NCBI RefSeq assembly: GCF_013122565.1
Contig: NZ_CP053258.1
Reading direction: 5' to 3' (one strand)
From: Escherichia coli
GTDB lineage: Bacteria; Pseudomonadota; Gammaproteobacteria; Enterobacterales; Enterobacteriaceae
Length of the DNA: 64,000 nt
The number at the start of each line of letters is the position of its first letter. The first letter of the stretch is position 1. Under the pieces are notes generated by a model. That model ran no database searches and was not told where the DNA came from. It was given only the letters and a program-made list of their open reading frames with translations. The position numbers were made by a program, and so were the translations under genes. This document shows positions 23,262 through 50,606 of this stretch, piece after piece.

Positions 23262-24242
23262 ATGAACGCAATAATATCGCCCGATTATTACTATGTTCTT
23301 ACCGTTGCTGGTCAGTCTAATGCCATGGCGTATGGCGAAGGACTGCCATTACCGGACAGGGAAGATGCGCCTCATCCCAGAATTAAACAATTAGCGAGAT
23401 TTGCGCATACGCATCCCGGAGGCCCGTCATGTCACTTTAACGACATTATTCCACTGACTCACTGCCCACACGATGTTCAGGATATGCAGGGTTATCACCA
23501 TCCACTGGCAACGAATCATCAAACACAGTACGGCACCGTTGGGCAGGCACTGCATATTGCACGGAAATTACTGCCCTTCATTCCTGATAATGCAGGGGTT
23601 CTCATCGTTCCATGTTGTCGTGGCGGCTCGGCTTTTACCGCAGGCAGCGAAGGGACATATTCAGAACGGCACGGAGCCAGCCATGATGCTTGTCGTTGGG
23701 GAACGGATACCCCGCTCTACCAGGATTTAGTCAGCAGAACGCGAGCCGCACTGGCAAAAAATCCGCAGAACAAATTCCTCGGCGTATGCTGGATGCAAGG
23801 CGAATTTGACTTAATGACCAGTGACTACGCGTCACACTCTCAACACTTTAATCATATGGTTGAAGCCTTTCGTAGGGATCTAAAACAATACCATTCTCAG
23901 CTTAATAATATTACTTACGCGCCGTGGTTTTGCGGCGATACCACCTGGTACTGGAAAGAAAATTTCCCTCATGCGTATGAAGCTATTTATGGCAATTATC
24001 AAAATAATGTTTTAGCCAATATTATTTTCGTGGACTTCCAGCAACAAGGTGCAAAAGGGCTAACGAACGCGCCTGATGAAGACCCGGACGATTTAAGCAC
24101 GGGATATTACGGTTCAGCGTACCGGTCACCGGAGAACTGGACGACGGCACTGCGAAGCAGTCATTTCAGCTCAGCAGCCCGTCGGGGGATTATTTCTGAC
24201 AGATTTGTAGAAGCAATTTTGCAGTTTTGGCGCGATAGGTGA
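23262..24242 (+). CDS. nanS: N-acetyl-9-O-acetylneuraminate esterase
   Basis: Matches remembered E. coli NanS (YjhS) beginning MNAIISPDYYY; ORF track extends to an upstream TTG at 23235. Confidence 0.8.
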   Translation: MNAIISPDYYYVLTVAGQSNAMAYGEGLPLPDREDAPHPRIKQLARFAHTHPGGPSCHFNDIIPLTHCPHDVQDMQGYHHPLATNHQTQYGTVGQALHIARKLLPFIPDNAGVLIVPCCRGGSAFTAGSEGTYSERHGASHDACRWGTDTPLYQDLVSRTRAALAKNPQNKFLGVCWMQGEFDLMTSDYASHSQHFNHMVEAFRRDLKQYHSQLNNITYAPWFCGDTTWYWKENFPHAYEAIYGNYQNNVLANIIFVDFQQQGAKGLTNAPDEDPDDLSTGYYGSAYRSPENWTTALRSSHFSSAARRGIISDRFVEAILQFWRDR

Positions 24243-24384
24243 GCGTTCATTAATTTGATTTATTTGCATCCATCAGTGCTTTTAACTCCTCCGGCGTAAA
24301 CGGTGGTTTGCGTCGGTGCAACATCGCATTGCAATTAGGGCACACAGGTAGCAAAAAAACAAATGAGATCAAGGTAATATATCT

Positions 24385-24639
24385 TTGCTTGCAGGCTTGA
24401 ACAGCAGAAAATTTGCGAGCATGATCGCAATTATTTCACTGCCAGGGATATCAATGGCTTCCAGTAAATCGCTACAGCAGGCAATTGCCAATATAAAAAT
24501 CTGGCACAAGGGTGAACAGCGCGCGCCGCATAAGCCATTGTTATTGCTATACGTATTAGCGGGATACCTGCATGGACATCCGCGCCTTTTCGATTATTGT
24601 AGTGGAACAGTCTACGAGGATGCAGTTCGAAGTGAGTAA
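24385..24639 (+). CDS. Small ORF (84 aa), possibly a truncated remnant of an ancestral gene next to nanS
   Basis: ORF track only; lies between nanS and island boundary; no motif recognised. Confidence 0.25.
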   Translation: MLAGLNSRKFASMIAIISLPGISMASSKSLQQAIANIKIWHKGEQRAPHKPLLLLYVLAGYLHGHPRLFDYCSGTVYEDAVRSE

Positions 24640-24915
24640 GTAAAGGTTGCTGGAAACGATCAATGCCGCCATACAATAATATTTGAGGATCAACAATGAG
24701 TAATAAAAATTACGAGAGTCACCGCAAAGCAATTGTTAGTAAAGGTATACCCCCCACTCTATTAAATAGGCTCACCAATTCGGATATTCAGGTGATCAAT
24801 ACCTTCTTAACACGAGTGAGCAAACTGGAACTATCTCAACAAGAGAAAGACTGGATCATAAAAATCATCTCTATGGTTTAGAGAATTTCAGCCTTGTAGC
24901 CTTTCAAGGGTTTTG

Positions 24916-25098
24916 TGTGGGTACAAACATTATCGAATCGGGATATAGCCGCAGCTGTAGCTGTACCCACATCAGTAAGTTGATGTAGGTTGACTTAGGT
25001 TGAGCGAAAAATAGCGAAAAGCCTTGTGTGGCGCGGATTTCAGTCACAAAAAAGACGTCCGTTGACGTCTATTGATGTTCCGATGGTGCGAAGGCCGC
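24916..25098. repeat. Degenerate copy of the leuX-proximal region (integrase upstream region, terminator-like hairpin and tRNA 3' end remnant); distal att boundary of the leuX island
   Basis: About 75 percent identity by eye to 47446-47630; TGGTGCGAAGGCCG at 25084-25097 resembles the tRNA 3' end; hairpin GACGTC-CGTT-GACGTC at 25054-25069. Confidence 0.6.
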
Positions 25099-25277
25099 AC
25101 CGCTCTTTCAAATATAATTCATTGAAATTAATGTGATTTATTAACCCAAAAATCACTTTGTATACTCACATGTATACTCAGCGCGATTCTCTGAGAAATC
25201 AACAACCTGAATAATCAGTCGGTACTTTAACGCTTCACAATGTTTATAGGAATTTCAAGTAAAGACAATGCTGCATA

Positions 25278-26225
25278 TCAAGCATTCAGGATGGCTAGCG
25301 CTAAGCTCCTAAACCTGGAGTAAGCCTCATCCCATGTGATCTTTCGCTCTCCATACACCATTGGCGAAACAAACTGCTGATAGCGCATCTCGTAGAGAGG
25401 ATTGTTCGCCAACTCATCCAGTCCCATTTTTAGCTCATCAACTGGAGATGCGCAAAACTGCGGGTACTGGTTGCCGTAACGCTGAATGTCCTGCTCAATA
25501 GTTTGTTGAACAAAATCAACGAGCTGACTCATATCAACATGACTCGTCTCAACAATACAGTTTGTATCGTAGATATGACGTACCAGCGATGCATCATCAA
25601 ATCGCTCAACATCTCGCACAACTGCCGCAGTACGACGTAACATCGCCACCAGCTTTTCTGCCTGTGTGCTAATGATAGTTGCACATGGAAACGCTGAAAC
25701 AATAGCCGCTTTTCCCGTGATCCCTGTTACCAGTGAATGAATATCCCGTAATTCAGAAGGCTCCAGTAACTTCGCTTCCATCAATTCCAGCCGGATAAAA
25801 GGACGCAAACAAGGTGCCTGCACCACTCGCTGTGGATAACGAACAGGTATGTCATTATAACGATATTCATCCCGCGTCACTTTTGGGTAATCATCATCAA
25901 AATTGAACACACCCGATGAAGCTATTGCACTGGAAACTGCCTGAACAATTTCTTTACGGGTATTTTTTCGCTGAGTGCGGGAAAGTGCCTGAAATGCATC
26001 CTTAGGCACCAGTTTGATATCCACATCTTCCGACATGCGATTAAGTGCGACACCTGATTTTGCCAGAGCGGTTCCTCCGGCAAACACCAATTGATGAGTA
26101 TCGAACACCAGAGGTTTAAGCAATTGCAAAAGCTCAACGATATAGTGATCTTTTTCCACAATTGCGACAGACTCAATACCAAGCGCGTCAGCCACTTCAG
26201 AAAAAAGAGTGGTTAAATCATCCAT
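25278..26225 (-). CDS. Nucleotidyltransferase-fold toxin, AbiEii-like (DUF1814-like)
   Basis: N-terminal region with GG..A....D.D motifs typical of minimal nucleotidyltransferases; overlaps upstream small gene by 8 nt. Confidence 0.6.
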   Translation of the reverse strand: MDDLTTLFSEVADALGIESVAIVEKDHYIVELLQLLKPLVFDTHQLVFAGGTALAKSGVALNRMSEDVDIKLVPKDAFQALSRTQRKNTRKEIVQAVSSAIASSGVFNFDDDYPKVTRDEYRYNDIPVRYPQRVVQAPCLRPFIRLELMEAKLLEPSELRDIHSLVTGITGKAAIVSAFPCATIISTQAEKLVAMLRRTAAVVRDVERFDDASLVRHIYDTNCIVETSHVDMSQLVDFVQQTIEQDIQRYGNQYPQFCASPVDELKMGLDELANNPLYEMRYQQFVSPMVYGERKITWDEAYSRFRSLALAILNA

Positions 26226-26613
26226 TTAATCTGCTGTTCCCTACAGATAATACGCGTTTAAAACGCCGGGGGGTTTTTATCTCGGGTGAAGCTGGGATCT
26301 GCGTAGAAGTACCGCTATTGTATGCCTGCGTTGCGCCAGCAAAACGATAGCGTACTTTCAGGCGTTCCAGCGTTTCGACAATCACCGCTGAAGAGCCTCC
26401 GGGAGCCGCTGGCATTACCTTGCCTGTAATACCGTTCCGCCGTGCTTTGGTATACACGCCATAACCAACCTTCAACAGTTGCCCTTCCCTGACAAGATCG
26501 CGCAATACCCGACCAACCTGATCGTAGCCTGCAATATCTTTAAAGTCGTCACGAGTGAATACGTAACGTTTAGAACGTTTCAGTCGTGACTGAATGCGTG
26601 CTTTTATCGTCAT
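26218..26613 (-). CDS. AbiEi-like antitoxin/transcriptional regulator (131 aa from ATG with strong RBS)
   Basis: ORF track start is at 26682, but ATG at 26613 is preceded by AGGAGG; basic N-terminus; stop overlaps toxin start. Confidence 0.5.
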   Translation of the reverse strand: MTIKARIQSRLKRSKRYVFTRDDFKDIAGYDQVGRVLRDLVREGQLLKVGYGVYTKARRNGITGKVMPAAPGGSSAVIVETLERLKVRYRFAGATQAYNSGTSTQIPASPEIKTPRRFKRVLSVGNSRLNG

Positions 26614-26645
26614 ATTCGCCTCCTGAGTCATTGCATAAAGAGTAG

Positions 26646-26689
26646 CAAAAATACGACATTTTAGATAGCAAACATACGACATTCATTTT
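26646..26689. promoter_or_regulatory. Two direct repeats of ATACGACATT in the promoter of the AbiEi-like gene
   Basis: Copies at 26651-26660 and 26674-26683, 23 bp apart; same core as inverted repeats at 35.2-35.3 kb. Confidence 0.4.
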
Positions 26690-27540
26690 GCTGATAACGC
26701 TGACGGAAAGTGCTTCGCCACGATATCATTCATCTTATCCACCAGATCCAGTCGCTTGAATGTGATATGCCCACTGCCCTTCTGAAAGTAGCGAATAGTG
26801 AATAACTCATCTTCGAAAATCTGCTGATGCGGATTATCGCGCACAAAATCCATAAACCGGATGGAGACATCATGCCGGTTATCGGGGATAGGTTTGCCAT
26901 CCAGCAAATAGAGCATACGCTCCAGATCGGCAAGCTGATCTCGCCGCCAGCCCCAGTTCAGGCTGTAGCCCCATCTGTCATGCTTCACCAGATTGTTAAC
27001 GATAATCTTCTTACCGAAATAACAGGGATTATTGGTTTTGTAGTCCCAGCTCAATCCCTTAAATACATTGATAATCCCACGTTCGAAAACATCCTGCTTA
27101 TTGTGGTGAAGTTGTTCAAAGGTACTCAGGATGTTGGCTTCGCTAATCGCCGGGAGATCACCCTCCTCCAGATTCTTTGCCCACTGACTGCGAGCTTCGG
27201 CATCCATCAGAGTCAGCATCCCAGACTTCAGCATGAGATCGCGCCAGATGCTGCGATCGATATTTCGGGTGATCACCGGCATGGCTTTATCCACCGGCTG
27301 CACCAGCCAGCAGTCGAAGGAATGGCCCTGACGCATCGCCCAATGCTCCGCCACATCACCACCGATGCTGGAGGTTAGCCGTGAGATATCATCAAGCTTA
27401 TGGATCAGGATTTCTATCAGACTCAACGCAGCATCACGACCCGTCACGATACGCTCAACATTGGTCGAGCAAATTAGCTCGTTATGATCGGTTAAGACTT
27501 CAGCTTCTGTTTGCATAATCTTTTGTCCGTGTAAAAGCAA
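26683..27540 (-). CDS. Conserved island protein (285 aa), possibly DUF4942-like
   Basis: ORF track; position downstream of a CbtA-like toxin gene as in CP4-type islands; family name recalled, not verified. Confidence 0.4.
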   Translation of the reverse strand: MLLHGQKIMQTEAEVLTDHNELICSTNVERIVTGRDAALSLIEILIHKLDDISRLTSSIGGDVAEHWAMRQGHSFDCWLVQPVDKAMPVITRNIDRSIWRDLMLKSGMLTLMDAEARSQWAKNLEEGDLPAISEANILSTFEQLHHNKQDVFERGIINVFKGLSWDYKTNNPCYFGKKIIVNNLVKHDRWGYSLNWGWRRDQLADLERMLYLLDGKPIPDNRHDVSIRFMDFVRDNPHQQIFEDELFTIRYFQKGSGHITFKRLDLVDKMNDIVAKHFPSALSAK

Positions 27541-27630
27541 ATGCGCCAGCCATGAACAGCAGGCGCATTATGCAGGGAGTTATGAGGGAAGTAATTTTGG
27601 CGATGTAAATCGGGAAGGAGACTTGCAGAT

Positions 27631-27972
27631 TCACCGTGCCGTGGTGTTATAGCAGCGGCGCAGCAGACCTGTAGCCTGCCGCGCCCGCAAAATATCGACC
27701 GCACGAAGATAAGGCGTCTGTTCCTGCCAGCTAAATCCTTTCCTGTCGATACGGATCAATTCGTACTTCTCCACCAGAAAATTGACGGCATCGACCAGAG
27801 TGATCCCGGCGTCTATGTGTTCCTGAATCACCTTTTCATTGTTGAATGGTGTGTCATTAAGATTCAGCCCGTAGTGCTGCTCCAGCAGGCGGGTCAGTAA
27901 TGTTTGCCAGACCACGATGGGCGACAGATATGACGTCGTCGCCCGCAGCGTCGTTGCAGGAATAATTTTCAT
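27631..27972 (-). CDS. CbtA/YeeV-family toxin (type IV TA, cytoskeleton-targeting)
   Basis: Strong similarity to remembered CbtA ([22 protein letters not shown]...[11 protein letters not shown]). Confidence 0.8.
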
Positions 27973-28002
27973 AACGATGTTCCGTATTAAGGAGGTTAAA
28001 AC

Positions 28003-28338
28003 TCAGCGTTGAGTGGGATAAATAGCGATATAGACGTAACCACAGGAACCCAGCGTATCGGCTTCGCAGGTTAGTCCTTTGGCGTATAGCGTGACGGTAC
28101 GTTGTTGGCAGGGGGAGAGTTCACCGTCAGCCAGTTTCAGCTCCAGTTGTTTCATCAGCACCGGAAAAGCCTGGTCGATATGCAGCAGATCCGGGGAGCT
28201 GAATTTCCCGGTGATTGCGGCCCGATCAGCCAGGTAATGCAGGTTATGTCTTTCCTGTACCAGTCGAGCAGTGAAGCGTGGTGTTACGGTACAGGGAAGC
28301 CCCCATTCTTGTTGCATGACCTTGTCCTTTTGCAGCAT
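28003..28338 (-). CDS. CbeA/YeeU-family antitoxin
   Basis: Similarity to remembered CbeA (WGLPCTVTPRFTARLVQE...HYLADRA...TLYAKGLTCEADTLGSCGYVY). Confidence 0.8.
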   Translation of the reverse strand: MLQKDKVMQQEWGLPCTVTPRFTARLVQERHNLHYLADRAAITGKFSSPDLLHIDQAFPVLMKQLELKLADGELSPCQQRTVTLYAKGLTCEADTLGSCGYVYIAIYPTQR

Positions 28339-28811
28339 TACAGCCAGCCCCGTTCGGCAAAAGAGAGGACATCCCCCGCCCCAATAATGAAATGATCCAG
28401 CACCCTCACTTTCACCAAATCCAGTGTCTTAACAATATTCGTTGTAATAAGTCTGTCGGCCCGACTGGGTTCCGTCACGCCGGAGGGATGGTTATGCGCA
28501 AGGATCACTGCTGCGGCATTGTGCCGTAGCGCAGATTTCACAATCTCACGGGGATGTACTTCTGTGCTGTTAATCGTGCCGAGAAATAGCGTTTCGTGTT
28601 CCAGCAGTCGGTTCTGGTTATCGAGGTAGAGCACAACAAACATTTCCCGCTCCTGTCGTGCCAGATGCAGTTGCAGCCAGGTTTTTGTGGAGTCAGAGGA
28701 AAGAAAAGATTCGCCAGGATTTCGTTGATATTTCTCCAGCAGACGCATCGCACGGCGGATAACGCGTTGTTCACTCACCGAAAATACCGGTGTTAGCATC
28801 AGTTCAGACAT
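28338..28811 (-). CDS. RadC-like JAB/MPN domain protein (YeeS/YfjY family)
   Basis: JAMM-like motif HNHPSG...S..D; CP4-type context. Confidence 0.8.
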   Translation of the reverse strand: MSELMLTPVFSVSEQRVIRRAMRLLEKYQRNPGESFLSSDSTKTWLQLHLARQEREMFVVLYLDNQNRLLEHETLFLGTINSTEVHPREIVKSALRHNAAAVILAHNHPSGVTEPSRADRLITTNIVKTLDLVKVRVLDHFIIGAGDVLSFAERGWL

Positions 28812-28840
28812 TGTGTTTCCTTTACTATTAATAGCGTTGT

Positions 28841-29659
28841 TTATGAGGCCAGTTGCAACATGTTTTCAGCCATCACCCACAGGGCGCGGTTGAGCCTGAC
28901 ATCGCCGTCGATGCCTTTAATGGCGCGGGTGTGCGTGCGACCACCTTTTGCCGTCCGCCCGTTTAAACCACCTTTGATCAGGTTCTCCTGAATTCGCTGG
29001 TAGGTCGTCCACAGATCGCCGGATTCATCCTGCCAGCGGCGCGGAGCCAGCAACTGGGATTCCGTCACTGGCTGGTACTCTTCGCCAAAGCGGTACGTCA
29101 GCGCCGCCTTTGCCAGCGCCTGTTGCGCAGGGGGAGGCAGCATCAGCGACTGCATGGCATCGCGTTTCTCTTCAACCTGGTCAAAAACACTGAGGACTTC
29201 ATAAGCGCCTTCAATCACTTTCTCCACCACATTGCCTTTATGCGGTACTCGTACTTCACCAAACGACTCGCCGCAGACCAGTCCGTTACAACAAACAGAA
29301 CGGAACAGCCCTGGCAGCATCTGATAAGAACTGGAACCGTCATGGCTGTTGAGCAGAATAATTTCCGGCACCTGGTTGCGATTGATCTGGTCTTCCCGGC
29401 GCAGACGCAGCATGTGTTTTGTATGCTCACGTTTACCCACATCACGAACACGGGTCTGGCAGGCAAAGAAAGGATGAAATCCTTCACGCTGGAGGTTATC
29501 GAGCAGGGTAATGGTGGGAATATAGGTATAGCGTTCGCTGCGTGATTCGTGCTTATTTTCCCCGAATACGCTGGGGACATACTGCATCAATTCGTCATGC
29601 GTTAATGGGCGATCGCGACGGATTTGATTTACGCGGCCAAAGCGGCTGGCTAAGTTCAT
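28841..29659 (-). CDS. DUF932-like island protein (YfjQ/YafZ-like)
   Basis: Size (272 aa) and position upstream of radC-like gene as in CP4-type islands; assignment from memory. Confidence 0.5.
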   Translation of the reverse strand: MNLASRFGRVNQIRRDRPLTHDELMQYVPSVFGENKHESRSERYTYIPTITLLDNLQREGFHPFFACQTRVRDVGKREHTKHMLRLRREDQINRNQVPEIILLNSHDGSSSYQMLPGLFRSVCCNGLVCGESFGEVRVPHKGNVVEKVIEGAYEVLSVFDQVEEKRDAMQSLMLPPPAQQALAKAALTYRFGEEYQPVTESQLLAPRRWQDESGDLWTTYQRIQENLIKGGLNGRTAKGGRTHTRAIKGIDGDVRLNRALWVMAENMLQLAS

Positions 29660-35339: not shown

Positions 35340-35706
35340 GTGTTAGCCGGGAAAGGATATCTGTTACTTACTAAAATGATTTAGTGCTGAAAATATTTAT
35401 AAGCTAATAAATAGACAGGTATTACGGAGTAACGCCCAGGCTATGTTAACGAGCCCGCTGTTTTATTGGCTCAAAAAACATATCCCATAGATGTTCAGCC
35501 ATACCCTCGTTAGTGAGCAAGGTATCCCTTGAGTAGCCAGGGCTGAAGACGCCCATTGATGGGCGAAAACCAAGGATCTGGCCGTTAGAACAGTTATGTC
35601 GTTAAACACATCACCACCATATGCCATCCGGCTCACTTCGTCGGCCAAATTAGTGTGATATTCTTTCCAGAAATGCTGTTGTATCCACGACATAAGGCGA
35701 TGATTG

Positions 35707-38700
35707 ATGGAGCAGTCTCTCAATTTTGAAATGTTGCGCAGCCAGTGGCCGGAACTGGCTGAACTCGCGTGCATGGCGGAACACTATGTTCACTCCGATC
35801 CGGAAAGCTGTCTGGTCAAGCTGCGCAACTACACCGAATTGATGGTGCGCTGGTTGTATCGTCAGGAGCGGTTGCCGGAAGGTATTAAGGCTAATCTTTA
35901 CGATTTAATGAATGCTGATGTCTTTACCAGCATGATGCCGGAAGCCATCATCATGAAAATGGATGCGCTGCGTATCCATGGCAACCGTGCCGCGCACGGC
36001 GGACGTATCAAAGCTAAAGATACTTACTGGCTGCTCAAAGAAGCGTATTTGTTGGGAATTTGGCTGTATGTTCGCTACGCCCACGGTAATGTTGATGACT
36101 GCCCCAAATTTACACTCCCTCCATTAACACCATCTTCAGGTCGTGCAGATGAAAAACGTCTGGAAGATGCAATCAAGGCTCAGGATGAAAGCCGTGAGCG
36201 CGAACTGGCGCTACAACGCGCACTACAGCAAGAACAGGAAAAGGCCGAACACCTCACTCAACGCCTGAATGAAGCCAGAGCGCGTAACCAGCATGTTGCC
36301 GATATTCTCTCTATTGATGAAGCGGAAACCCGCCGTCGCCTGATTGACTCTCGCCTGCTTGCTGCTGACTGGAATGTAGGCGAAGAACTTAATAATACCG
36401 ATCAGGTCACGCAGGAACACCCCGTTAAAGAACAACCTACTGCAACCGGTGACGGTTATGCAGACTATGTCTTGTGGGATGAGGCACACAAACCGCTGGC
36501 GGTGGTGGAAGCCAAAAAAACTAGTGTCAATGCCGAGCAAGGACGAATTCAGGCCCGGCTGTATGCAGACTGGCTGGAAAAAGAATACGGTCAGCGTCCG
36601 GTCATCTTCTACACCAACGGCTATGATATCTGGCTGTGGGATGACCATAAAACTCATGGTTATCCCCCGCGTCGGGTGTTTGGCTTCTACAGCAAGGAAA
36701 GCCTGCAATATCTTATTCAGCAGCGTGAAACCCGTCTGCCGCTGAACAGAGTGCCACACGTAAAAGATAACGAAGGTAAGGCCGTTGCCGGACGTTTGTA
36801 CCAGCTCGAAACCATTGCCCGCGTCAGTGAACGGTTTACCAACAAGTACCGACAATCGTTAATTGTTCAGGCTACGGGTACAGGCAAAACCCGCGTGGCA
36901 ATTGCACTAAGCAAACTGATGATTGATGCCCGCTGGGTAAAACGCGTCCTGTTTCTTTGCGACCGTAAAGAGCTGCGTAAACAGGCGGCAAATGCCTTTA
37001 ATCAATTCACCAATGAGCCGCTGTATGTGGTCGGGAAATCGAAGAAAGCAGACAGGCAGAACGCCAGGATCTACATCGCTACCTATCCCGGTATGATGAA
37101 AATCATGGACCATTTCGATGTCGGATATTTCGATCTGATTATCGCCGATGAATCCCATCGCTCTATCTACAACGTTTACGGCGATCTGTTTAAGTATTTT
37201 GATGCCCTCCAGATTGGCCTGACGGCCACGCCGATCGACATGGTGAGTAAAACGACTTTCGGCCTGTTTGGTTGTGAAGGACGTATCCCTACCGCCAACT
37301 ACAGTCTGGAAGATGCCATCGCCGATAACAATCTGGTTCCCTATGAGGTTGTCACGCACACCACAGAATTCCTGCGCGAAGGCATCAAACGGGAGAAATT
37401 AAGCGACACACAAATCCGCGAGCTGGAAGAACAAGGCATAGATCCCAATACGCTGGAGTTTGATGGCAAGGCGCTGGATGAGGCGATCTACAACAAAGAC
37501 ACCAACCGCTATATCCTGCGTAACCTGATGGAAAATGGCCTGAAAGATCGGGACGGCCAGTTGCCAGGTAAAACCATCATTTTCGCCCGTAACCACAAAC
37601 ACGCGCTGCTGTTGAATGAATTGTTCGACGATATGTACCCGCAGTTTGCCGGGCGCTTCTGCCAGGTCATCGACAATTACGATCCCCGCGCCGAGCAACT
37701 GATTGATGATTTTAAAGGGCTGGATGAAAGCACTAACAAAGAGCTAACCATCGCTATCTCCGTTGACATGCTCGATACCGGTATTGATGTCCCGGAGATT
37801 GTGAATCTGGTCTTTGCCAAACCGGTCAAATCAAAAGTGAAATTCTGGCAGATGATTGGCCGTGGTACGCGCCTCTGTCCGGGGTTGTACGGTTACGACG
37901 ATAACGGCAAACCTCTGGATAAACAGAAATTCCGCATTTTCGATCACTGGGGCAATTTTGAGTATCACGAACTGCATACCGAAGAGGCCGAAGTCACAGC
38001 GACAAAATCGCTTGCACAAAAACGCTTCGAAGCGTGGGTTATGCTGGGGGCCGCTGCGCAACGTAAATTCGACAAACAGGCGGTGGATTTAGTTGCTCAC
38101 CAGCTTCGCGAGCAAATCAACGCACTGGATGAAAAGTCGATTGCCGTACAGGAAAAGTGGCAGCAAAAAGCGCAGTACAGTGATGAAAAGGTGCTGCGCC
38201 AGCTTTCTCCGAAAACACAGCAGGATCTGCTATCTGTTCTGGCCCCGCTGATGCAGTGGCTGGACGTGCGCGGGCAAAGCGATGCCATACGCTTTGATAT
38301 GGATATTCTGGCGGCGCAAACTGCCCGTTATACCAACCCGGAAGAGCTGGATGTGCTCTGGCCGGCCATCGTCGAAAAAGTGGAGCGCCTGCCGCCGCAT
38401 TTGGCGCAGGTGCAGCAACAGGGACAGCGGATCAATCAGCTTCGTGATTTAAGCTGGTGGAAGCAGGCCAGCCTGGAAGAGCTGGAGGATATTCGCATTC
38501 ATTTGCGCGGTATCATGCACCTGATGGAAAAAGACGCGACGCCTAAATTTGGTTCGATACAGGTGGATATTACCGAAGATGCGAACCTGATCCAGACGGA
38601 GACCCGCAAAACTAATATCCGCTCGATTGATTTCAAACTCTATCGCCAGCAGGTTCAGGGGGCGCTGGAGCCGCTGTTCCAGCAAAACCCGGTTCTGAAG

Positions 38701-39120
38701 AAAATCCGCAACGGCGAGCCAGTCACGCAAAACGAGCTTGATGAACTGGCGAAGCTGGTGCTGATCCAGAACCCCAACGTTGATATCCGGGCACTGAAAG
38801 AGTTCTATCCGCAGGCAACCGCCAGCCTGGATAAACTTTTGCGTACCATCATCGGGATGGACAGCGACGCGGTGGAAGTGCGCTTTGCTCAGTTCGCCGC
38901 TGATAACAGTCTAACCAGCCAACAACTGCGCTTCCTGTCATTGCTGAAAAACCACATTCGCGATTACGGCACCATTGAAATGCGGCAGCTCTTTGAACAG
39001 CCTTTTACGCATATCCACAACGAAGGCGTTACCGGTGTGTTCCCTGATATAGAGCAGATCGCCCGCCTGCAAAAGATAGTCGAAGAGCTGGGTGTTGTGA
39101 CCGACGCAGCGACGGTATAA
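35707..39120 (+). CDS. hsdR: Type I restriction enzyme R subunit
   Basis: DEAD-like helicase motifs (GTGKT, DESHR), size about 1137 aa; immediately upstream of hsdM/hsdS; ATG 35707 preceded by AAGG. Confidence 0.85.
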   Translation: MEQSLNFEMLRSQWPELAELACMAEHYVHSDPESCLVKLRNYTELMVRWLYRQERLPEGIKANLYDLMNADVFTSMMPEAIIMKMDALRIHGNRAAHGGRIKAKDTYWLLKEAYLLGIWLYVRYAHGNVDDCPKFTLPPLTPSSGRADEKRLEDAIKAQDESRERELALQRALQQEQEKAEHLTQRLNEARARNQHVADILSIDEAETRRRLIDSRLLAADWNVGEELNNTDQVTQEHPVKEQPTATGDGYADYVLWDEAHKPLAVVEAKKTSVNAEQGRIQARLYADWLEKEYGQRPVIFYTNGYDIWLWDDHKTHGYPPRRVFGFYSKESLQYLIQQRETRLPLNRVPHVKDNEGKAVAGRLYQLETIARVSERFTNKYRQSLIVQATGTGKTRVAIALSKLMIDARWVKRVLFLCDRKELRKQAANAFNQFTNEPLYVVGKSKKADRQNARIYIATYPGMMKIMDHFDVGYFDLIIADESHRSIYNVYGDLFKYFDALQIGLTATPIDMVSKTTFGLFGCEGRIPTANYSLEDAIADNNLVPYEVVTHTTEFLREGIKREKLSDTQIRELEEQGIDPNTLEFDGKALDEAIYNKDTNRYILRNLMENGLKDRDGQLPGKTIIFARNHKHALLLNELFDDMYPQFAGRFCQVIDNYDPRAEQLIDDFKGLDESTNKELTIAISVDMLDTGIDVPEIVNLVFAKPVKSKVKFWQMIGRGTRLCPGLYGYDDNGKPLDKQKFRIFDHWGNFEYHELHTEEAEVTATKSLAQKRFEAWVMLGAAAQRKFDKQAVDLVAHQLREQINALDEKSIAVQEKWQQKAQYSDEKVLRQLSPKTQQDLLSVLAPLMQWLDVRGQSDAIRFDMDILAAQTARYTNPEELDVLWPAIVEKVERLPPHLAQVQQQGQRINQLRDLSWWKQASLEELEDIRIHLRGIMHLMEKDATPKFGSIQVDITEDANLIQTETRKTNIRSIDFKLYRQQVQGALEPLFQQNPVLKKIRNGEPVTQNELDELAKLVLIQNPNVDIRALKEFYPQATASLDKLLRTIIGMDSDAVEVRFAQFAADNSLTSQQLRFLSLLKNHIRDYGTIEMRQLFEQPFTHIHNEGVTGVFPDIEQIARLQKIVEELGVVTDAATV

Positions 39121-39183
39121 TACACGCATGACAAGCCCCGGCAGCGGGGCTTTTGTATTTAAAACAGGATATAAACGCTAACA

Positions 39184-40818
39184 ATGATCACTGGTGACTT
39201 AAAAAGTAAAATCGACGGACTATGGGAAGATTTCTGGGTGGGTGGTATCACCAACCCGCTGACTGTAATCGAACAGATCACCTATCTAATGTATTCCCGG
39301 ATGCTGGATACCCAGGAACAACGTGACGAGAAGCGTAAACAAATCGCGGGTATTGATTTTAAACCGCGTTTTACGCCAGAACAGCAGGAGTTCCGTTTCA
39401 GTCACTATAGCAATCTTGGCTCGGATGAGATGATGGAAGTGGTGCGCGATGGCGTATTCCAGCATTTTCGTCAGCTCGGCCTGGCTGATGCATCAAAGGT
39501 GACACTGCTGGGCAACTTTATGAAAGATGCTCGTCTAGAGATTGTTAAGCCGTCATTGCTGACCAAAGCGGTTGAGGTGATCAAAAACCTGCCGCTCGAT
39601 CGCGGCGATACCAAAGGCGATCTCTACGAGTACCTGTTGAGCAAGCTAACTACCGCCGGGATCAACGGTCAGTTCCGCACGCCACGCCACATTATCCGCA
39701 CGATGGTTGAAATGATGGAGCCGAATCCCGCCCGCGGCGAGACGATTTGCGATCCAGCCTGTGGCACCGGTGGTTTTCTGGCAACCAGCTATGAATATCT
39801 GCTGGAGAAGTACAGCTCGCTGGAATCCATCCATACTGAGATTGGCACCAACGAACGTGGCGAGCTGGAAGAGCAAAAAATCTTTACCGGCGATCTGCTG
39901 ACGCCATGGCGTAACCATGTGGATAACAATATGTTCCACGGTTACGACTTTGATACCACCATGCTGCGTATCGCCGCCATGAACCTGATTATGCACGGCG
40001 TGGAAGCGCCTGATATCCACTATCAGGACACCATGAGCCAGAGCTTCAGCACAAACTTCCCGCAGGCCAGTAAAAACGCTTTCAACCTGATTCTGGCAAA
40101 CCCGCCGTTTACCGGTTCACTGGACGAGGAAGATATCGACTCCACGCTGTCGGCAATGGTGAAAACAAAAAAAACCGAACTGCTGTTCCTGGCGCGAATT
40201 CTGCAAATGCTGAAAGTGGGCGGGCGAAGTGCCACTATCGTGCCGCAGGGCGTGCTGTTTGGCTCCAGTAAGGCGCACCAGTCACTTCGCAAAACGTTGG
40301 TGGAAGATAACCAATTGGAAGCGGTGATCAACCTGCCTTCCGGCGTATTTAAACCTTACGCTGGCGTGGCGACGGCGATCCTGATCTTTACCAAAGGCGG
40401 TCAAACGGATGAGGTCTGGTTCTACGATCTACAAAATGACGGCTACAGCCTGGATGATAAGCGCAACCCGATAAAAGACAACGATCTGCCGCATCTGCTG
40501 GCAAGCTGGAAGCATTACCGTACTTTACGCGGGCTACCGGTTGATAACTTTATGGGTGAGAAGTTAGCCTCATTGCTGAAACAGCAGTACCCGGAAGGGA
40601 TTGATGCTGGCGTTGATTTTAAAGATCGCACGCAGGCGGCATTTGTGGTGCCGAAAGAAGATATTGCTGCGCAGAAATACGATCTCTCTATCAATCGTTA
40701 TAAAGAGGTGGTGTATCAGGCGGAGGAATATGAAGATCCGAAGGTGATACTGAAACGATTAAAAGATCTGGAAAAAGAGATTCTGGCGGATCTGGATGAG
40801 CTGGAGGGGATGCTGTGA
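39184..40818 (+). CDS. hsdM: Type I R-M N6-adenine DNA methyltransferase M subunit
   Basis: N-terminal HsdM-like region, AdoMet motif ([10 protein letters not shown]) and NPPF catalytic motif. Confidence 0.9.
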
Positions 40819-41990
40819 GCAGGAAAGAATATTCCTTTATTGAAGTATGTGATATCCAAGGAGGAACTCAGCCTCCAAAGGACGAGTTTGTTTATGAAAA
40901 AAAAGATGGATATATAAGGCTTTTACAAATCCAAGATTTTAAAAGAGAGGATAAAACTGTTTATATTAAGGATAGGCATACTCTGAAAAAATGTAATGAC
41001 GATGATATTCTAATAGGTAGATATGGAGCATCTATTGGAAAAATTCTCTCTGGGTTATCAGGAGCATATAACGTTGCTTTGGTTAAAGCCATCCCTGATT
41101 TAAAAAAAATAAACAAGAGATTTTTATGGCATTTTTTAAACAGTGTAGTATTTCAAGAATTTATAAAAAATGTTTCTACTCGAGCCGCTCAAGCTGGGTT
41201 TAATAAGGATGACTTAGCAAAGCTAAAAATATATTTACCATCTTTAAATGAGCAAGTGAAAATTGCTTCTGTTCTTGATTTATCTGATGCCATACGCAAA
41301 AAACGAGAACAAACTATCAAACTGGCTGATGATTTTTTGCGTGCTACGTTTTTGGAGATGTTTGGTGATCCTGTTGAAAACCCTAAAGGATGGAAAAAGG
41401 ATAAAATAAAAAAAGGTGTGTTAGGCATTGCTTCAGGATGGAGTGCCACTGGAGAAAATATACCCTGTAAATCTGATGAATTTGGCGTGTTGAAAATCAG
41501 CTCGGTGACTTCTGGAGTATTCAAACCAGAAGAAAATAAAGTGGTAGCCTGTGAATCCATTCCCGCTTCAAAAAAACTTATTCACCCTAAAAAGGGAGAT
41601 TTGCTATTTAGTCGCGCAAATACCAGAGAGTTAGTTGCTGCGATATGCATGGTTCATCAGGATTATGACAACCTTTTCCTTCCTGATAAACTATGGTCTA
41701 TTAAGTTAAATCATAAGCTATTGCTACCAGAGTTCTTTCTCATCTTAATACAAAATGAAAAAGTCCGTGAGTTACTAACAAAACAAGCGACCGGAACAAG
41801 TGGGTCGATGCTAAATATATCTAAAAATAAATTTGAAGAAACTGAAATTATCTTCCCAGAGATCAATGTTCAAAAAGATTTTTGCAATACTTTCAGAAAA
41901 ACAATAAATTTGAAAACAAAGTTAATAAAAAGTAATGAATTAGCTAATGAGTCATTTAATTCATTATCTCAAAAGGTATTTCAGCAATGA
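40815..41990 (+). CDS. hsdS: Type I R-M specificity subunit
   Basis: 391 aa with two target-recognition-domain halves; GTG start overlapping hsdM stop (GTGA) with GGAGGGGA RBS; AT-rich. Confidence 0.8.
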   Translation: MSRKEYSFIEVCDIQGGTQPPKDEFVYEKKDGYIRLLQIQDFKREDKTVYIKDRHTLKKCNDDDILIGRYGASIGKILSGLSGAYNVALVKAIPDLKKINKRFLWHFLNSVVFQEFIKNVSTRAAQAGFNKDDLAKLKIYLPSLNEQVKIASVLDLSDAIRKKREQTIKLADDFLRATFLEMFGDPVENPKGWKKDKIKKGVLGIASGWSATGENIPCKSDEFGVLKISSVTSGVFKPEENKVVACESIPASKKLIHPKKGDLLFSRANTRELVAAICMVHQDYDNLFLPDKLWSIKLNHKLLLPEFFLILIQNEKVRELLTKQATGTSGSMLNISKNKFEETEIIFPEINVQKDFCNTFRKTINLKTKLIKSNELANESFNSLSQKVFQQ

Positions 41991-43678
41991 AAATTGTTTA
42001 TACACCTGATCGATCCTGGAGAGAAATCCCACCAGCAAAACCAGAACTTGGTGATGTTTTATCTCTGAGCAGTAATAATTGGGATGACTATGGATATAAA
42101 ACTACTCTAAACGCAAAAATATACATTAAGAATCAATCTATTTCATTTGATTTTTCAATTAAATTATTAATTGAAAATATCGATAACACGGCAATAAAGC
42201 TAGATGAATTATGTAAAGATGGATGGGATGGAATATTCCCCATCCCTAATACTAACTATATAGCTCTTCCATCTGATATTGATTTTTATCAAATACTCAT
42301 ATCTAAAATAGGTGAGGAATCAACAGTCAATCTTCTGAATGATCTGAACGATGCAGGTTTCAATAAAAATGTTTACCATAATGAAATATCTAACAGACTC
42401 ATAGAACAAGATGCCTTTAAAACGTCATTACTCCGAGAAAGTGGAGCAAATAAAGCCTATCTAGACGGTTATCTGATATTCCAAAATATTCACGCAGAAA
42501 TAAGAAACTTTCAGTTAAATATTTTAACGAAAAAAGGAGGTGTAAATAAGATACCATTTAAATTTGAATCTAATTTATTGCCTTATGATATTAATGTTAT
42601 TATTGGCCCGAATGGGATTGGTAAATCTCATTGCCTGAAATCACTTGTTGAATATTGGTTGCAAATAGGAATGGGGGAACAACGATTACTTGAAAAGAAT
42701 AAGCATACTCCATTTGATGAACGACCTAACATAAGTAAGCTTGTTCTTGTTTCTTATAGCCCTTTTGAAGAGTTCAGCCTAGATCTAGAAAAAGACAATT
42801 TACAAGATAAAAAGGCATATCAATATTTTGGTTTCAGGCAAATGAGAGATAATGGGACAATTGGTATCAGTCGAAACTTACCAGCTTTAAATTCAAGTGA
42901 GTCATTACTTGAAATGATATCTGATGATAAGAAATACCAATTCATTGAAAATCGAATAAATAAGCTCAACTCTGTCGATTCTGCACTCAAATCTGCTATT
43001 AGCTATGATTATTGTGTTCTAAGATTATCTCCAGAAGATAACTCATCTTATCTCGGGAAAGATATTGTCATAATTGATGGCGAAAAATATCTCCCTGCAG
43101 TAAATATTGTAAAATGGGCTGATCATTTAGATTTAATAAGGGATTCTATACTACTCAATGATGGTGTAATCTTTGTTAAAGATGGGGAAATTGTAAATCT
43201 TAGTTCTGGCCAACGATTATTTGTATATATAGCTATTAATGTTGTCGGTGCAATGAAAGAAAATAGCTTAATTGTGATTGATGAACCTGAATTATTTTTA
43301 CATCCTAACCTTGAAATAGAATTCATTGGGCTACTAAAAAAATTACTTAAATCATTTCGCTCTAAAGCTATTCTAGCTACTCATTCCCTATCTATCACAC
43401 GTGAAGTACCGTCAAAATGTGTACATATATTCCGCTACAAGGATGACGAATTTGAAATAGTCCCCCCGCCATTTGAAACATTTGGCGGTAATGTTCAGAG
43501 AATTTCTTCTTATGTTTTCGGCGATAAATCGATCTCTAAGCCTTTTGATGAATGGCTTGAGATGCAGCTTCAAGCTATTAAAGATCCTGAAAAATTAATT
43601 GAAATGCTAAATGAAGAAATTAATGAAGAAATAATCATGAAAATCATGAGTTTAGGGAAAAAGTATCATGGTCACTAA
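41987..43678 (+). CDS. ABC/AAA-type ATPase (563 aa) with an about 200 aa N-terminal domain of unknown function; Septu PtuA-like
   Basis: Walker A GPNGIGKSH near residue 208; Walker B-like VIDEPELFLHP; ATGA overlap with hsdS stop. Confidence 0.55.
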   Translation: MKIVYTPDRSWREIPPAKPELGDVLSLSSNNWDDYGYKTTLNAKIYIKNQSISFDFSIKLLIENIDNTAIKLDELCKDGWDGIFPIPNTNYIALPSDIDFYQILISKIGEESTVNLLNDLNDAGFNKNVYHNEISNRLIEQDAFKTSLLRESGANKAYLDGYLIFQNIHAEIRNFQLNILTKKGGVNKIPFKFESNLLPYDINVIIGPNGIGKSHCLKSLVEYWLQIGMGEQRLLEKNKHTPFDERPNISKLVLVSYSPFEEFSLDLEKDNLQDKKAYQYFGFRQMRDNGTIGISRNLPALNSSESLLEMISDDKKYQFIENRINKLNSVDSALKSAISYDYCVLRLSPEDNSSYLGKDIVIIDGEKYLPAVNIVKWADHLDLIRDSILLNDGVIFVKDGEIVNLSSGQRLFVYIAINVVGAMKENSLIVIDEPELFLHPNLEIEFIGLLKKLLKSFRSKAILATHSLSITREVPSKCVHIFRYKDDEFEIVPPPFETFGGNVQRISSYVFGDKSISKPFDEWLEMQLQAIKDPEKLIEMLNEEINEEIIMKIMSLGKKYHGH

Positions 43679-44594
43679 GTTACAACTTCCCGAATATGAC
43701 TCTATTAAGGTACTCCGAACCATCATTTCAGAAAGAGAGAGATATAAAGATTTCTATGATAGCTTATCGAATGATTGGATAGCACATGTAGAAAGCTATT
43801 TGGAACATCATGGTGATCCACGCTTTATTACACCTCTCGACCTCTCTCTGTATATTTCAGAAGAATTAGTACAAAATGAAGAAGAGAAAACAACTGATGC
43901 CAATAGGCATATATCGGCGCAAGAAAGACTGACGCAAAAAAGGAAACAAACTCTAATTAATTTATACTCTCCTGCTGAGGGGAAAACTCCCTACGATATT
44001 CTTGATACTTTAAGACGAGGACATGGCCTGTTATTTTGCCCATGTTGTGGGGAACCAGGAAAGCCGACAACGTTAGACCATTATTTGCCTAAAACTATCT
44101 ATCCTGAATTAGCTATAATTATTGCTAACTTAACGCCGATGTGTAATGAATGTCAGCAGAATAAAAGTTCTGATTATTTTGATGAGGATGGTAACAAAAT
44201 TTACATACATCCTTATTTTGATCCTATTGAACAAGTTAATTTAATCATTGATATAGAAGAACCCTATGCTACTCCAACATTCAGGCTAAACATTACTGAG
44301 GATGGTGATGATAATGAGATTTATGAATTGCTAAGGCGACATATAAATGGTGTTAAATTTTTAGAGCGATTCGATGAGTTTTGTCGAAATGAATATATGG
44401 CATTATTGCGCACAATGTCATTAGAACGTCAAGATGCTCAACCGGATAGAGCGTCAAGAATAATTTGTCGATTCAAACGCCAATATGAGGGTCAGTCTCC
44501 AAATAGATGGGAGGCTATTTTCTATAGAGGGATATTGAATAATGCCGACCTACTTAATTATCTAGATCATGGAAACTTGCCTGATTTTACATAA
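43668..44594 (+). CDS. HNH nuclease-domain protein (308 aa); Septu PtuB-like
   Basis: HNH motif CPCCG...LDHYLPK...NLTPMCNECQQNK; start overlaps ATPase gene by 11 nt with AGGGAAAAAG RBS. Confidence 0.55.
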   Translation: MVTKLQLPEYDSIKVLRTIISERERYKDFYDSLSNDWIAHVESYLEHHGDPRFITPLDLSLYISEELVQNEEEKTTDANRHISAQERLTQKRKQTLINLYSPAEGKTPYDILDTLRRGHGLLFCPCCGEPGKPTTLDHYLPKTIYPELAIIIANLTPMCNECQQNKSSDYFDEDGNKIYIHPYFDPIEQVNLIIDIEEPYATPTFRLNITEDGDDNEIYELLRRHINGVKFLERFDEFCRNEYMALLRTMSLERQDAQPDRASRIICRFKRQYEGQSPNRWEAIFYRGILNNADLLNYLDHGNLPDFT

Positions 44595-44842: not shown

Positions 44843-45847
44843 TTAATAATAATTATAGTATAACCGTTTAATTGCCTTGTTTAATATAGTTTCATACTCA
44901 TTTTCTGACATATTCAACCAAGCAGTTATACTTTTTAATCCACTAGACTGATAATCTATAAACTCGCGCATTTTATTATAATCAATACTTACCTGCGTGT
45001 TTGTATCAGCTATAACTTTAGGTTCCCCATTACACCACCCTAAAATAAGAAAACTACTCATTGTGCTTGACATGTCACAAAAGAAAAAAAGATCGGGTAT
45101 TATTTTACCTAATTGCTTTGCATAACTGACTACCTCAGGTATTTCAAGCAACTCTCTGGGGTCATCATCATACCCCCCAAATAATATTTCAACCTTACCC
45201 TGTTGACTATAAGCAAATTCCTTTGTCACTTTTAGTCTTTTAAAAATGCTAATGACAAAACCAAAATCAAATCTTAAAACATCTTCTTTAGGAATAATTA
45301 GGCGAGTGATATCTATATTCTCATTAAATATTTTGTTTACACACCAAAACATTTCAAACTCAGAGTAATAATCAACTTCTTCAGGAAGAAGTGCCAATAT
45401 CTCATCTCTACTATCAATCAATTGACGTTTTGGAATATTAATCTTCCATGATTTTTTTGTTCTTTCAATTTTGATAGGATCAAAATATTCCCAAAACACT
45501 TCTTTTTTTTCAGGATTGCAAAGCAAAATCAAAACAGGTATTGGGCAGTTGGATAAATAATTAAAGTGCTTATTTTCACCTCTGTAAACATATCCCCACC
45601 GATTTTCTTCCGAAAAAAATGAAGCTCCACATTTGATTTGTACAGCAAGCATTTTCCCCGTTACGGCTCCATCTTCTCGTACTATTTCGATATAACCATC
45701 GATACCGAAATCCATTTCTTGATGGTTTATCTTAAAAATCCATCCAAGATTTTCATTAATTACTGATTTTACTATATTTACTCCAAGCTCACCTAATTGA
45801 GCTTCTTTTTGGTATTTTGGGAATTTATCTATCATAAAAAACCTCAA
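44843..45847 (-). CDS. Uncharacterised protein (334 aa) with possible restriction-endonuclease-like (PD-(D/E)xK, DUF4365-like) N-terminal domain
   Basis: Putative D...E.K-like motif (DFGIDGYIEIV...AVQIKCG); AT-rich gene flanked by AT-rich spacers next to integrase. Confidence 0.4.
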   Translation of the reverse strand: MRFFMIDKFPKYQKEAQLGELGVNIVKSVINENLGWIFKINHQEMDFGIDGYIEIVREDGAVTGKMLAVQIKCGASFFSEENRWGYVYRGENKHFNYLSNCPIPVLILLCNPEKKEVFWEYFDPIKIERTKKSWKINIPKRQLIDSRDEILALLPEEVDYYSEFEMFWCVNKIFNENIDITRLIIPKEDVLRFDFGFVISIFKRLKVTKEFAYSQQGKVEILFGGYDDDPRELLEIPEVVSYAKQLGKIIPDLFFFCDMSSTMSSFLILGWCNGEPKVIADTNTQVSIDYNKMREFIDYQSSGLKSITAWLNMSENEYETILNKAIKRLYYNYY

Positions 45848-47419: not shown

Positions 47420-47582
47420 GATACTTCTCCTTCCATGTACCGCCGTGAGTATACAAACATTATCGAATCAGCATATATACTCAGTTATATACTCACAAGC
47501 GACTTGATGTGGGTTGACCCAGGTTGACTTCAGTTGAGGGGAAAATCGAGGAAAGCCTTGTGTAGCGCGGGTTTCAGGCATA

Positions 47583-47608
47583 AAAAAAGACCTCAGTTGA
47601 GGTCTATT
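47583..47608 (-). terminator. Rho-independent terminator of leuX
   Basis: Hairpin GACCTCA-ACT-GAGGTC followed by T-run on minus strand. Confidence 0.6.
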
Positions 47609-47618
47609 TACATACTTT

Positions 47619-47703
47619 TGGTGCCGAAGGCCGGACTCGAACCGGCACGTATTTCTACGGTTGATTTTGAATCAACTGCGTCTACCGATTTCGCCACTTC
47701 GGC
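47619..47703 (-). tRNA. leuX: tRNA-Leu (CAA)
   Basis: Reverse complement reads GCCGAAGTGGCGAAATCGGTAGACGCAGTTGATTCAAAATCAACCGTAGAAATACGTGCCGGTTCGAGTCCGGCCTTCGGCACCA (85 nt, CAA anticodon, CCA end). Confidence 0.95.
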
Positions 47704-48918: not shown

Positions 48919-49047
48919 TCCCTTTGCCGGGTGCCTGTCGCCCGGCACTTAAATCTCTTTGGAAGGCGTCTCGCAATCTGCTGAATTTAGCGGTGAAGAG
49001 TGCGCAGCCGTTGCCTATACTCCAGGCAGGAAACTGGAGGAAATCTC

Positions 49048-50550: not shown

Positions 50551-50568
50551 GCCAGGTGCGATTTGTCT

Positions 50569-50606
50569 TTGCCTGATGCGACGCTGGCGCGTCTTATCAT
50601 GCCTAC
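50569..50606. repeat. REP (repetitive extragenic palindrome) element
   Basis: GCCTGATGCGACGCTGGCGCGTCTTATCATGCCTAC consensus-like sequence. Confidence 0.5.

Follow-up and report, generated by a model that had tools for sequence, protein, structure and literature searches.

Few defence systems are more abundant than AbiE. Here we describe an AbiE-type gene pair, abiEi and abiEii, located at positions 25278–26613 of a 64,000-nt stretch of Escherichia coli DNA (RefSeq assembly GCF_013122565.1, contig NZ_CP053258.1; this whole stretch is further referred to as the window). The locus is very probably an intact bicistronic AbiE-family toxin–antitoxin (TA) and abortive-infection module of the short-antitoxin SanaTA subtype, forming the last gene pair of a leuX-integrated CP4-like defence island. 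The pair is genuine yet ordinary: it shows no departure from the known kind, and the same genes already carry AbiE-type annotation in public E. coli genomes.

The AbiE systems described in Streptococcus agalactiae and on the Lactococcus lactis plasmid pNP40 are bicistronic, with the gene of a winged-helix antitoxin located upstream of, and overlapping with, the gene of a DUF1814 nucleotidyltransferase (NTase) toxin (PMC3985639; PMC7319586; preprint 10.64898/2026.01.19.700257). The C-terminal domain of the S. agalactiae AbiEi alone suffices for antitoxicity (PMC3985639; PMC7319586), and mutations of G49, R63, D67, D69, K173, R180 or D192 abolish the toxicity of the S. agalactiae AbiEii (PMC3985639). 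The placement of AbiE in type IV is now disputed, a 2026 preprint having moved it to type VII, that is, to systems with antitoxin-induced auto-phosphorylation of the toxin; the preprint presents the crystal structure of the S. agalactiae complex and antitoxin-dependent phosphorylation (T65), and predicts the same for SanaTA (preprint 10.64898/2026.01.19.700257). The phosphoacceptors found at this place are T65 in the S. agalactiae AbiEii, S78 in MenT3, and S65 in SanaT (same preprint).

As for the target, MenT toxins modify the 3' CCA ends of tRNAs, and such modification has been proposed for AbiE-T2 of Serratia (PMC7725324); a further precedent for tRNA targeting is PMC7450476. Three AbiE loci of Serratia sp. 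ATCC 39006 (AbiE-1, AbiE-2, and AbiE-3), which have antitoxins of the DUF4095, AbiEi_3, and AbiEi_4 classes, are functional according to transposon sequencing and toxicity assays, and induction of the toxin perturbs tRNA pools (PMC7725324). Finally, SanaTA is an experimentally validated TA pair, which protects E. coli against phage T7 lacking gene 4.5, its antitoxin SanaA being thought to be removed by Lon (preprint 10.64898/2026.01.19.700257; review PMC8230891).

Comparison With Known Systems

SanaTA is the closest characterised relative of the window pair. A conjugative plasmid of Shewanella sp. ANA-3 (NC_008573.1; loci L059 and L082 in our set) encodes a 136-amino-acid (aa) DUF6088 protein and a 313-aa AbiEii with Ser65, annotated in RefSeq as DUF6088 and AbiEii, respectively. 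Compared with locus L059 by tblastn, the window toxin is 43.8% identical over residues 1–313 (E = 1e-85), and the window antitoxin is 45.2% identical over residues 7–129 (E = 3e-31). We infer that L059 is the published SanaTA locus from the organism, the protein lengths, and Ser65, not from the locus tag; the original publication of SanaTA is reportedly that of Sberro et al. (2013).

The two pairs share a short antitoxin (136 aa in SanaTA, 131 aa in the window), the toxin Ser65 within RMSEDVDI, abutting or overlapping genes, and related operator cores (TGCCGTAT) upstream. SanaA, which is 136 aa long and acts on a toxin with S65, also lacks the full canonical C-terminal domain (preprint 10.64898/2026.01.19.700257). 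On the other hand, SanaTA resides on a conjugative Shewanella plasmid and has an hsdM-like methylase gene directly downstream, whereas the window pair lies in an Escherichia leuX island, at its distal end; the operators differ in the sequence variant and in the distance to the –10 element; and the experiments concern SanaTA, the Escherichia member being known from its sequence.

With the S. agalactiae and L. lactis pNP40 AbiE systems the window pair shares, in addition to the gene order, motifs I–III (including the arginine of motif II and the unusual spacing x15), the phosphoacceptor at position 65, and repeats in the promoter. The differences are that the window antitoxin is shorter by about 65 aa, its C-terminal domain missing the distal helical bundle; that the operator there consists of two inverted repeats of 23 bp separated by 3 bp, while the window has two direct repeats 23 bp apart; and that motif IV is RHIYD instead of +DxxD. 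The MenAT systems of Mycobacterium tuberculosis (MenT3/TglT–MenA3/TakA, MenT4–MenA4/Rv2827c, and MenT1–MenA1) resemble the window pair in the predicted toxin fold, the active-site layout, and the S-x-D-x-D pattern around the phosphoacceptor, but sequence identity does not exceed 14–20%, their antitoxins either far surpass the window one in length (Rv2827c) or bear no relation to it in size, and the operators are sets of inverted repeats. The Serratia loci are similar in being enterobacterial AbiE loci (PMC7725324).

Organization of the Gene Pair

An earlier note, made from the sequence of this DNA, had described a small basic protein preceded by a strong AGGAGG ribosome-binding site, overlapping by 8 nt with a protein of the NTase fold, and had read the pair as AbiEi/AbiEii. 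Each of these points is borne out by the analysis. The 131-aa abiEi product has a pI of 11.14, with 27 lysines and arginines against nine aspartates and glutamates, and its ATG is preceded by AGGAGG at a distance of 5 nt. The 8 nt common to both frames, from the abiEii start (26225) to the abiEi stop (26218), are ATGGATGA. The Pfam search is positive for both proteins (AbiEii for the toxin, DUF6088 and AbiEi_4 for the antitoxin), and the downstream protein combines a PF08843 match and polymerase-beta motifs with a MenT-like predicted fold.

This organization recurs in related loci: the genes overlap by 1–20 nt or stand 1–2 nt apart in 73 of 78 loci, and a GGAGG-type Shine–Dalgarno sequence is found at the equivalent spot in nearly all of them. 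The 131-aa start is favoured because this is the commonest length among the homologue clusters listed, because the cognate antitoxins of the related loci have 131–136 aa, and because of the strong Shine–Dalgarno sequence before the ATG at 26613. The mechanical open reading frame (ORF) extends up to 26682, directly after the DUF4942 stop, yielding a 154-aa abiEi; this variant was rejected, as the extension consists of the operator repeats. Some public records (P0003, 154 aa) begin the short AbiEi at this kind of upstream in-frame ATG, so that the operator repeats would be translated. The Rfam scan of positions 24000–27700 at E ≤ 1 yielded no RNA family, so nothing points to a riboswitch or to an antitoxin made of RNA.

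The Toxin AbiEii

The toxin matches the Pfam AbiEii family PF08843 over residues 38–303 (E = 6e-30, 105.4 bits at a cut-off of 22.5, profile positions 7–237 of 238) and the PADLOC AbiEii profile PDLC02297 over its full length (E = 5.5e-128, residues 1–313). With definitions of the polymerase-beta NTase motifs taken from PMC3985639 (hG[G/S]-x15-DhD, the motif II arginine, KLxAxxxR-like, and +DxxD), the catalytic motifs of AbiEii are all intact as judged by sequence. Motif I is A49-G50-G51, followed after exactly 15 residues by D67-V-D69 of motif II, which reads RMSEDVD and includes the family-specific arginine R63 and S65. Motif III is K191-LVAMLR-R198, and motif IV is R216-H-I-Y-D220, with histidine in place of the first aspartate of +DxxD.

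Two alignments, one of 30 homologues and one of 33 cognate pairs, show no variation at G50, G51, R63, S65, D69, K191, R198, R216, H217, and D220. D67 is likewise invariant in the 33 pairs, whereas among the 30 homologues at least 90% of sequences retain it. The R-M-S-E-D-x-D pattern is invariant across the subfamily alignments, and Ser65 within it sits two residues before the first metal-binding aspartate. The conserved motif residues correspond to those needed for toxicity of the S. agalactiae AbiEii.

Searches against sequences from the Protein Data Bank with both proteins and with profiles A1, A2, and A3 produced nothing significant, the sole signal being a weak match to MenT4 (E = 0.25) around motifs I and II. 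As these searches were uninformative, a comparison of folds was needed. The toxin part of the AlphaFold2 model matches MenT4 (6Y56) in Foldseek with E = 8.3e-9, and the match to MenT3/TglT (6J7P/6Y5U) has a template modelling (TM) score of 0.66, normalised to the target. The profile alignment with MenT4 pairs RMSEDVD with RFSTDLD and RHIYD with RDLYD.

The Antitoxin AbiEi

The antitoxin matches PF19570 (DUF6088) with 30.7 bits (cut-off 25), covering only positions 2–100 of the 172-position profile, and PF13338 (AbiEi_4) with 25.5 bits, narrowly above the cut-off of 25. The PADLOC AbiEi profile PDLC02229, which has 131 positions, is matched end to end (E = 3.1e-53), whereas longer PADLOC AbiEi profiles with 202 and 214 positions are covered only over 1–121 and 3–125, respectively. 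The score for TAA_AbiEi, the NCBIfam equivalog of the canonical AbiEi, is 15.2 bits, below the cut-off of 150. In the AlphaFold2 model (mean predicted local distance difference test, pLDDT, 92.3; predicted TM score, pTM, 0.81), a winged helix-turn-helix (wHTH) domain, residues 1–60, is followed by two helices and a few short strands. The antitoxin does not have the canonical two-domain architecture of approximately 200 aa, in which the C-terminal domain comprises one helix, four strands, and a six-helix bundle.

Most of the 120 homologue clusters listed (of 234 significant matches) have a length of exactly 131 aa, no other length coming near it in frequency, and the 131-aa clusters among them span Escherichia, Salmonella, Pantoea, Dickeya, Photorhabdus, Yersinia, and other genera. 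This prevalence indicates that the window abiEi is not truncated. The antitoxin is a short SanaA-type AbiEi (131–136 aa), which refines the canonical AbiEi label. Two stretches of it are invariant, N60-T63-G64-M67-P68-G73 and S103-T104-Q105-I106-P107.

For annotation, this means that the end of the island is a recognisable AbiE defence or addiction module with the label refined to the SanaTA subtype, whose antitoxin is often recorded as “DUF6088” or misnamed. RefSeq names the identical E. coli genes “nucleotidyl transferase AbiEii/AbiGii toxin family protein” and “DUF6088 family protein.” In many public records (P0007, P0009, P0031, P0046, P0079, and others) the short AbiEi goes under the name “S-adenosylhomocysteine hydrolase,” which looks like a propagated misannotation, the protein being a 131-aa winged-helix one.

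Putative Operator and Promoter

The earlier note had also pointed to repeat motifs in the promoter. These are two direct 18-nt repeats, AATGTCGTATGTTTGCTA and AATGTCGTATTTTTGCTA, identical at 17 of 18 positions and placed 23 bp start to start; both fall in the 69-nt gap between the DUF4942 stop and abiEi, and their cores in the window are TGTCGTAT. The core TG[TC]CG[TC]AT is conserved within 140 nt upstream of abiEi, with at least one copy in 75 of 75 loci, at least two copies in 57, and a core-to-core spacing of 22–24 bp in all 59 spacings. Given the background expectation of 0.0066 cores per 140 nt, the observed repeats are far beyond chance, and as the flanking sequence is otherwise divergent, the conserved cores amount to a phylogenetic footprint. 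Inverted copies of the core are rare (three of the 75 loci, the window not being among them), hence the repeats are arranged head to tail.

The proximal repeat overlaps the putative extended –10 element TGCTACTCT, and homologues carry TGCTATGAT, TGCTATATT or TGCTATAAT at this position. In most loci the proximal repeat ends with TGC, followed by TATGAT, TATATT or TATAAT, which reads as an extended –10 element. By this overlap, repression would proceed through promoter occlusion. The direct-repeat operator (core TGYCGTAT, 23–24 bp spacing) was not found described in the AbiE literature searched, and it is the only such detail of the locus. Conserved from Escherichia to Legionella, it provides a ready-made candidate binding site for the short AbiEi.

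Related Loci and Selection

Scanning a single genome of each species gave 80 loci across the Gammaproteobacteria, distributed over Enterobacterales, Vibrionales, Alteromonadales, Oceanospirillales, and Legionella. In all of them the AbiEi homologue is encoded directly upstream of AbiEii, and by our own ORF calling the antitoxin has 131–136 aa in 76 of 78 loci. By the same calling, the toxin ORF is shortened or disrupted beside an intact antitoxin gene in about ten of 78 loci, some of which may reflect contig ends or the choice of the start codon; loss of the toxin with retention of the antitoxin is the pattern expected of a TA pair. Shortened or interrupted toxin ORFs are seen in L016, L017, L018, L020, L056, L067, L071, L073, L077, L078, and L080, with the antitoxin intact in all of these loci except L020 and L056. 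In comparison with enterobacterial orthologues, the ratio of nonsynonymous to synonymous substitution rates (dN/dS) is 0.05–0.09 for abiEi and 0.12–0.18 for abiEii, that is, purifying selection acts on both genes.

In the branch comprising Vibrio, Photobacterium, Shewanella, and Xenorhabdus, a gene of an HsdM-like N6-methylase lies within a few hundred bases downstream of abiEii (L026, L041, L042, L048, L059, L062, L065, L073, and L081, at approximately 7.2–8.5 kb in locus coordinates; the gap is 8 nt in Shewanella ANA-3). Such neighbours suggest that SanaTA-type pairs are repeatedly linked to restriction–modification (R-M) systems.

Distribution

The abiE operon is present at 99.3–99.9% identity in 133 of 5,426 complete E. 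coli genomes. Compared with E. coli strain A5, the operon with its promoter is 99.8–100% identical, while the neighbouring DUF4942 gene is 91% and the att-proximal spacer 87% identical. The chromosomal region lptF–lptG–yjgR (48000–52000) has a best identity of only 97.0% among the same genomes. The near-identity of the operon in other genomes, set against the diverged neighbours and chromosome, indicates that the module is horizontally shared and well conserved. For biology this leaves little new, since the exact operon is present and annotated in these 133 genomes. The operon together with most of the island backbone (25278–29659) is 97–100% identical to strains A5 and W; as core genes do not exceed 97.0%, the host looks like a divergent Escherichia lineage with a recently shared island.

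Proposed Mechanism and Alternative Explanations

The following scheme draws on characterised relatives. AbiEii, as a polymerase-beta-fold NTase, would stop growth by adding nucleotides to the 3' CCA ends of tRNAs. AbiEi monomers would bind the two direct repeats head to tail via the winged helix, and as the repeats cover the spacer and the –10 region, this binding would repress the operon. AbiEi would also bind the toxin and neutralise it, most likely by inducing auto-phosphorylation of Ser65. Loss of the antitoxin, by Lon proteolysis as in the case of SanaA, would free the toxin. The trigger could be shut-off induced by a phage, or the island being lost, and the toxin thus released would abort the infection or kill the cells that no longer carry the island.

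Direct contact between the two proteins was modelled as a fusion of AbiEi, a 30-residue Gly/Ser linker, and AbiEii from the window, using the alignment of 33 cognate pairs (alignment A5). The model has a mean pLDDT of 85.7, with only the linker below 50, and a pTM of 0.84 over 476 residues. As such a pTM is hard to reach with arbitrarily placed parts, the model supports direct binding of AbiEi to AbiEii. It agrees with the published model of SanaA:SanaT, in which pTM is 0.88 and a loop of the antitoxin is placed at the active site of the toxin (preprint 10.64898/2026.01.19.700257).

We tentatively suggest, as a possibility that falls somewhat short of probable, that the short SanaA-type AbiEi is a minimal antitoxin, in which some 70 residues past the winged helix dock on the toxin and trigger auto-phosphorylation of Ser65, and which in addition represses the operon by head-to-tail binding of monomers at direct repeats 23–24 bp apart. 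If so, the operator geometry would differ from the inverted repeats of all AbiEi and MenA4 proteins studied so far, and for telling apart the determinants of DNA binding and of toxin neutralisation in AbiE antitoxins, no tractable model would be smaller than this widespread enterobacterial pair.

Several observations weigh against the proposed scheme. Compared with the canonical AbiEi, the C-terminal domain of the window antitoxin is missing its distal helical part, so neutralisation may differ from that in S. agalactiae, and for the interface and the loop that would approach Ser65 the invariant stretches N60–G73 and S103–P107 are candidates. The repeats in the window are direct, unlike the inverted repeats of the S. 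agalactiae AbiEi and Rv2827c operators, and the binding geometry is therefore not simply transferable. A simple sigma-70 scan called no minus-strand promoter upstream of abiEi, hence the promoter assignment rests on comparison of homologues, and the predicted –10 element of the window (TACTCT) is weak. Finally, the S. agalactiae AbiE expressed in E. coli gave no protection against 32 coliphages (preprint 10.64898/2026.01.19.700257), so the role in defence is not guaranteed.

The last observation fits an explanation that retains the same biochemistry but assumes addiction as the selected role, that is, the pair would stabilise the leuX island or its distal end, since cells in which it is lost would be killed or arrested. 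The pair indeed lies at the extreme distal edge of the island, beside the att repeat, and has the same place in the conserved backbone DUF932–radC–yeeU–cbtA–DUF4942–abiE of E. coli A5 and W; moreover, the S. agalactiae AbiE stabilises plasmids, and an AbiE stabilises an integrative and conjugative element in S. suis (PMC3985639 and PMC11062541, respectively). Against this explanation, protection from T7 lacking gene 4.5 is conferred by SanaTA, the nearest relative tested, and the rest of the island is dense in defence genes (type I R-M, PDC-M01, a putative DUF4365 nuclease). We consider a purely stabilising role somewhat unlikely, and the roles in addiction and defence are not mutually exclusive.

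Neutralisation without contact, through the target or transcription only, as was first proposed for S. agalactiae (the classical type IV), is less likely still. The original pull-downs detected no interaction of AbiEi with AbiEii (PMC3985639), and MenT4, the best Foldseek match of the toxin, has been reported neither to interact with MenA4 nor to be phosphorylated; against this stand the crystal structure of the complex and the antitoxin-dependent phosphorylation for the S. agalactiae AbiE (preprint 10.64898/2026.01.19.700257), the invariance of Ser65 in the subfamily, and the pTM of the fused model. The window pair is likely to be neutralised in a type VII-like manner via Ser65 rather than as type IV. 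It is very improbable that the locus is a decaying or inactive relic, with ORFs intact but no working TA pair. The weak –10 element and the shortened or disrupted toxin ORFs in related loci would fit such decay, but in the window both ORFs are full length with every catalytic residue present, dN/dS is well below one, and the operon, including the promoter and the operator, is conserved at 99.3–100% across the 133 E. coli genomes.

Island Context

The leuX island is approximately 22.5 kb long and occupies approximately 25.1–47.6 kb of the window. The tRNA-Leu(CAA) gene leuX is at 47619–47703 (minus strand), and the segment 47555–47636, comprising the leuX 3' end and the downstream terminator, is repeated in degenerate form at the distal boundary. 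From the abiEii stop (25278) to this attachment site (att) remnant there are about 180 nt, in which no ORF reaches 40 aa, so the pair is, as the earlier note had it, the last cargo before the remnant. The terminator-like hairpin inside the remnant is likely the 3' end of the abiE transcript.

Table 1. Features of the abiE locus and of the leuX island (coordinates in the window).
Feature	Coordinates	Strand	Comment
Distal att site/island boundary: degenerate leuX 3' end and downstream sequence	25021–25100		~80% identity to 47555–47636
Intrinsic-terminator-like hairpin with T run	25053–25070	–	leuX terminator copy inside the att remnant
abiEii, DUF1814 NTase toxin	25278–26225	–	315 aa, pI 5.1; Pfam, PADLOC, motifs, Foldseek
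abiEi, SanaA-type short AbiEi antitoxin/repressor	26218–26613	–	131 aa; predicted wHTH ~1–60 and small alpha/beta C-terminal domain ~61–131
Shine–Dalgarno AGGAGG	26619–26624	–	5-nt spacer (CGAAT) to the abiEi ATG
Putative extended –10 TGCTACTCT	26639–26647	–	inferred, weak; overlaps the 3' end of the proximal repeat
Proximal operator repeat (putative) AATGTCGTATTTTTGCTA	26643–26660	–	23 bp downstream of the distal copy
Distal operator repeat (putative) AATGTCGTATGTTTGCTA	26666–26683	–	starts on the final base of the DUF4942 stop codon
hsdR, type I R-M	35704–39120
hsdM, type I R-M	39184–40818
hsdS, type I R-M	40815–41990
PDC-M01A, AAA_21/PtuA-like ATPase	41987–43678		PADLOC E = 4.6e-239
PDC-M01B, HNH protein	43668–44594		PADLOC E = 1.4e-107
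DUF4365 protein	44843–45847	–	Pfam 5e-36; adjoins the integrase
P4-type integrase	46151–47419		island start

The R-M operon runs into the PDC-M01 candidate defence pair via overlapping stops and starts (35704–44594), and over 41–46 kb the G+C content falls to 30–34%. The N-terminus of the DUF4365 protein resembles the restriction endonuclease (REase) domain of the PADLOC “Aga_REase-PNTD” models, associated with prokaryotic Argonautes (E = 5e-23). After PDC-M01, the island continues with a WYL protein, a GTPase, and then the CP4-like backbone DUF932–radC–yeeU–cbtA–DUF4942, followed by abiE. The backbone contains a second TA pair, similar to cbtA/yeeU (cbeA), at 27631–28338 (minus strand); radC and DUF932 precede it and DUF4942 follows it, in agreement with the annotation of E. 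coli W and A5. In these two strains the same backbone also ends in abiE, and directly after it comes another island in tandem, beginning with its integrase. In the window, the segment that separates the abiEii stop from the att remnant contains two tandem copies of TGTATACTCA, 12 bp apart (25159–25180), which may serve the island as arm-type recombinase sites.

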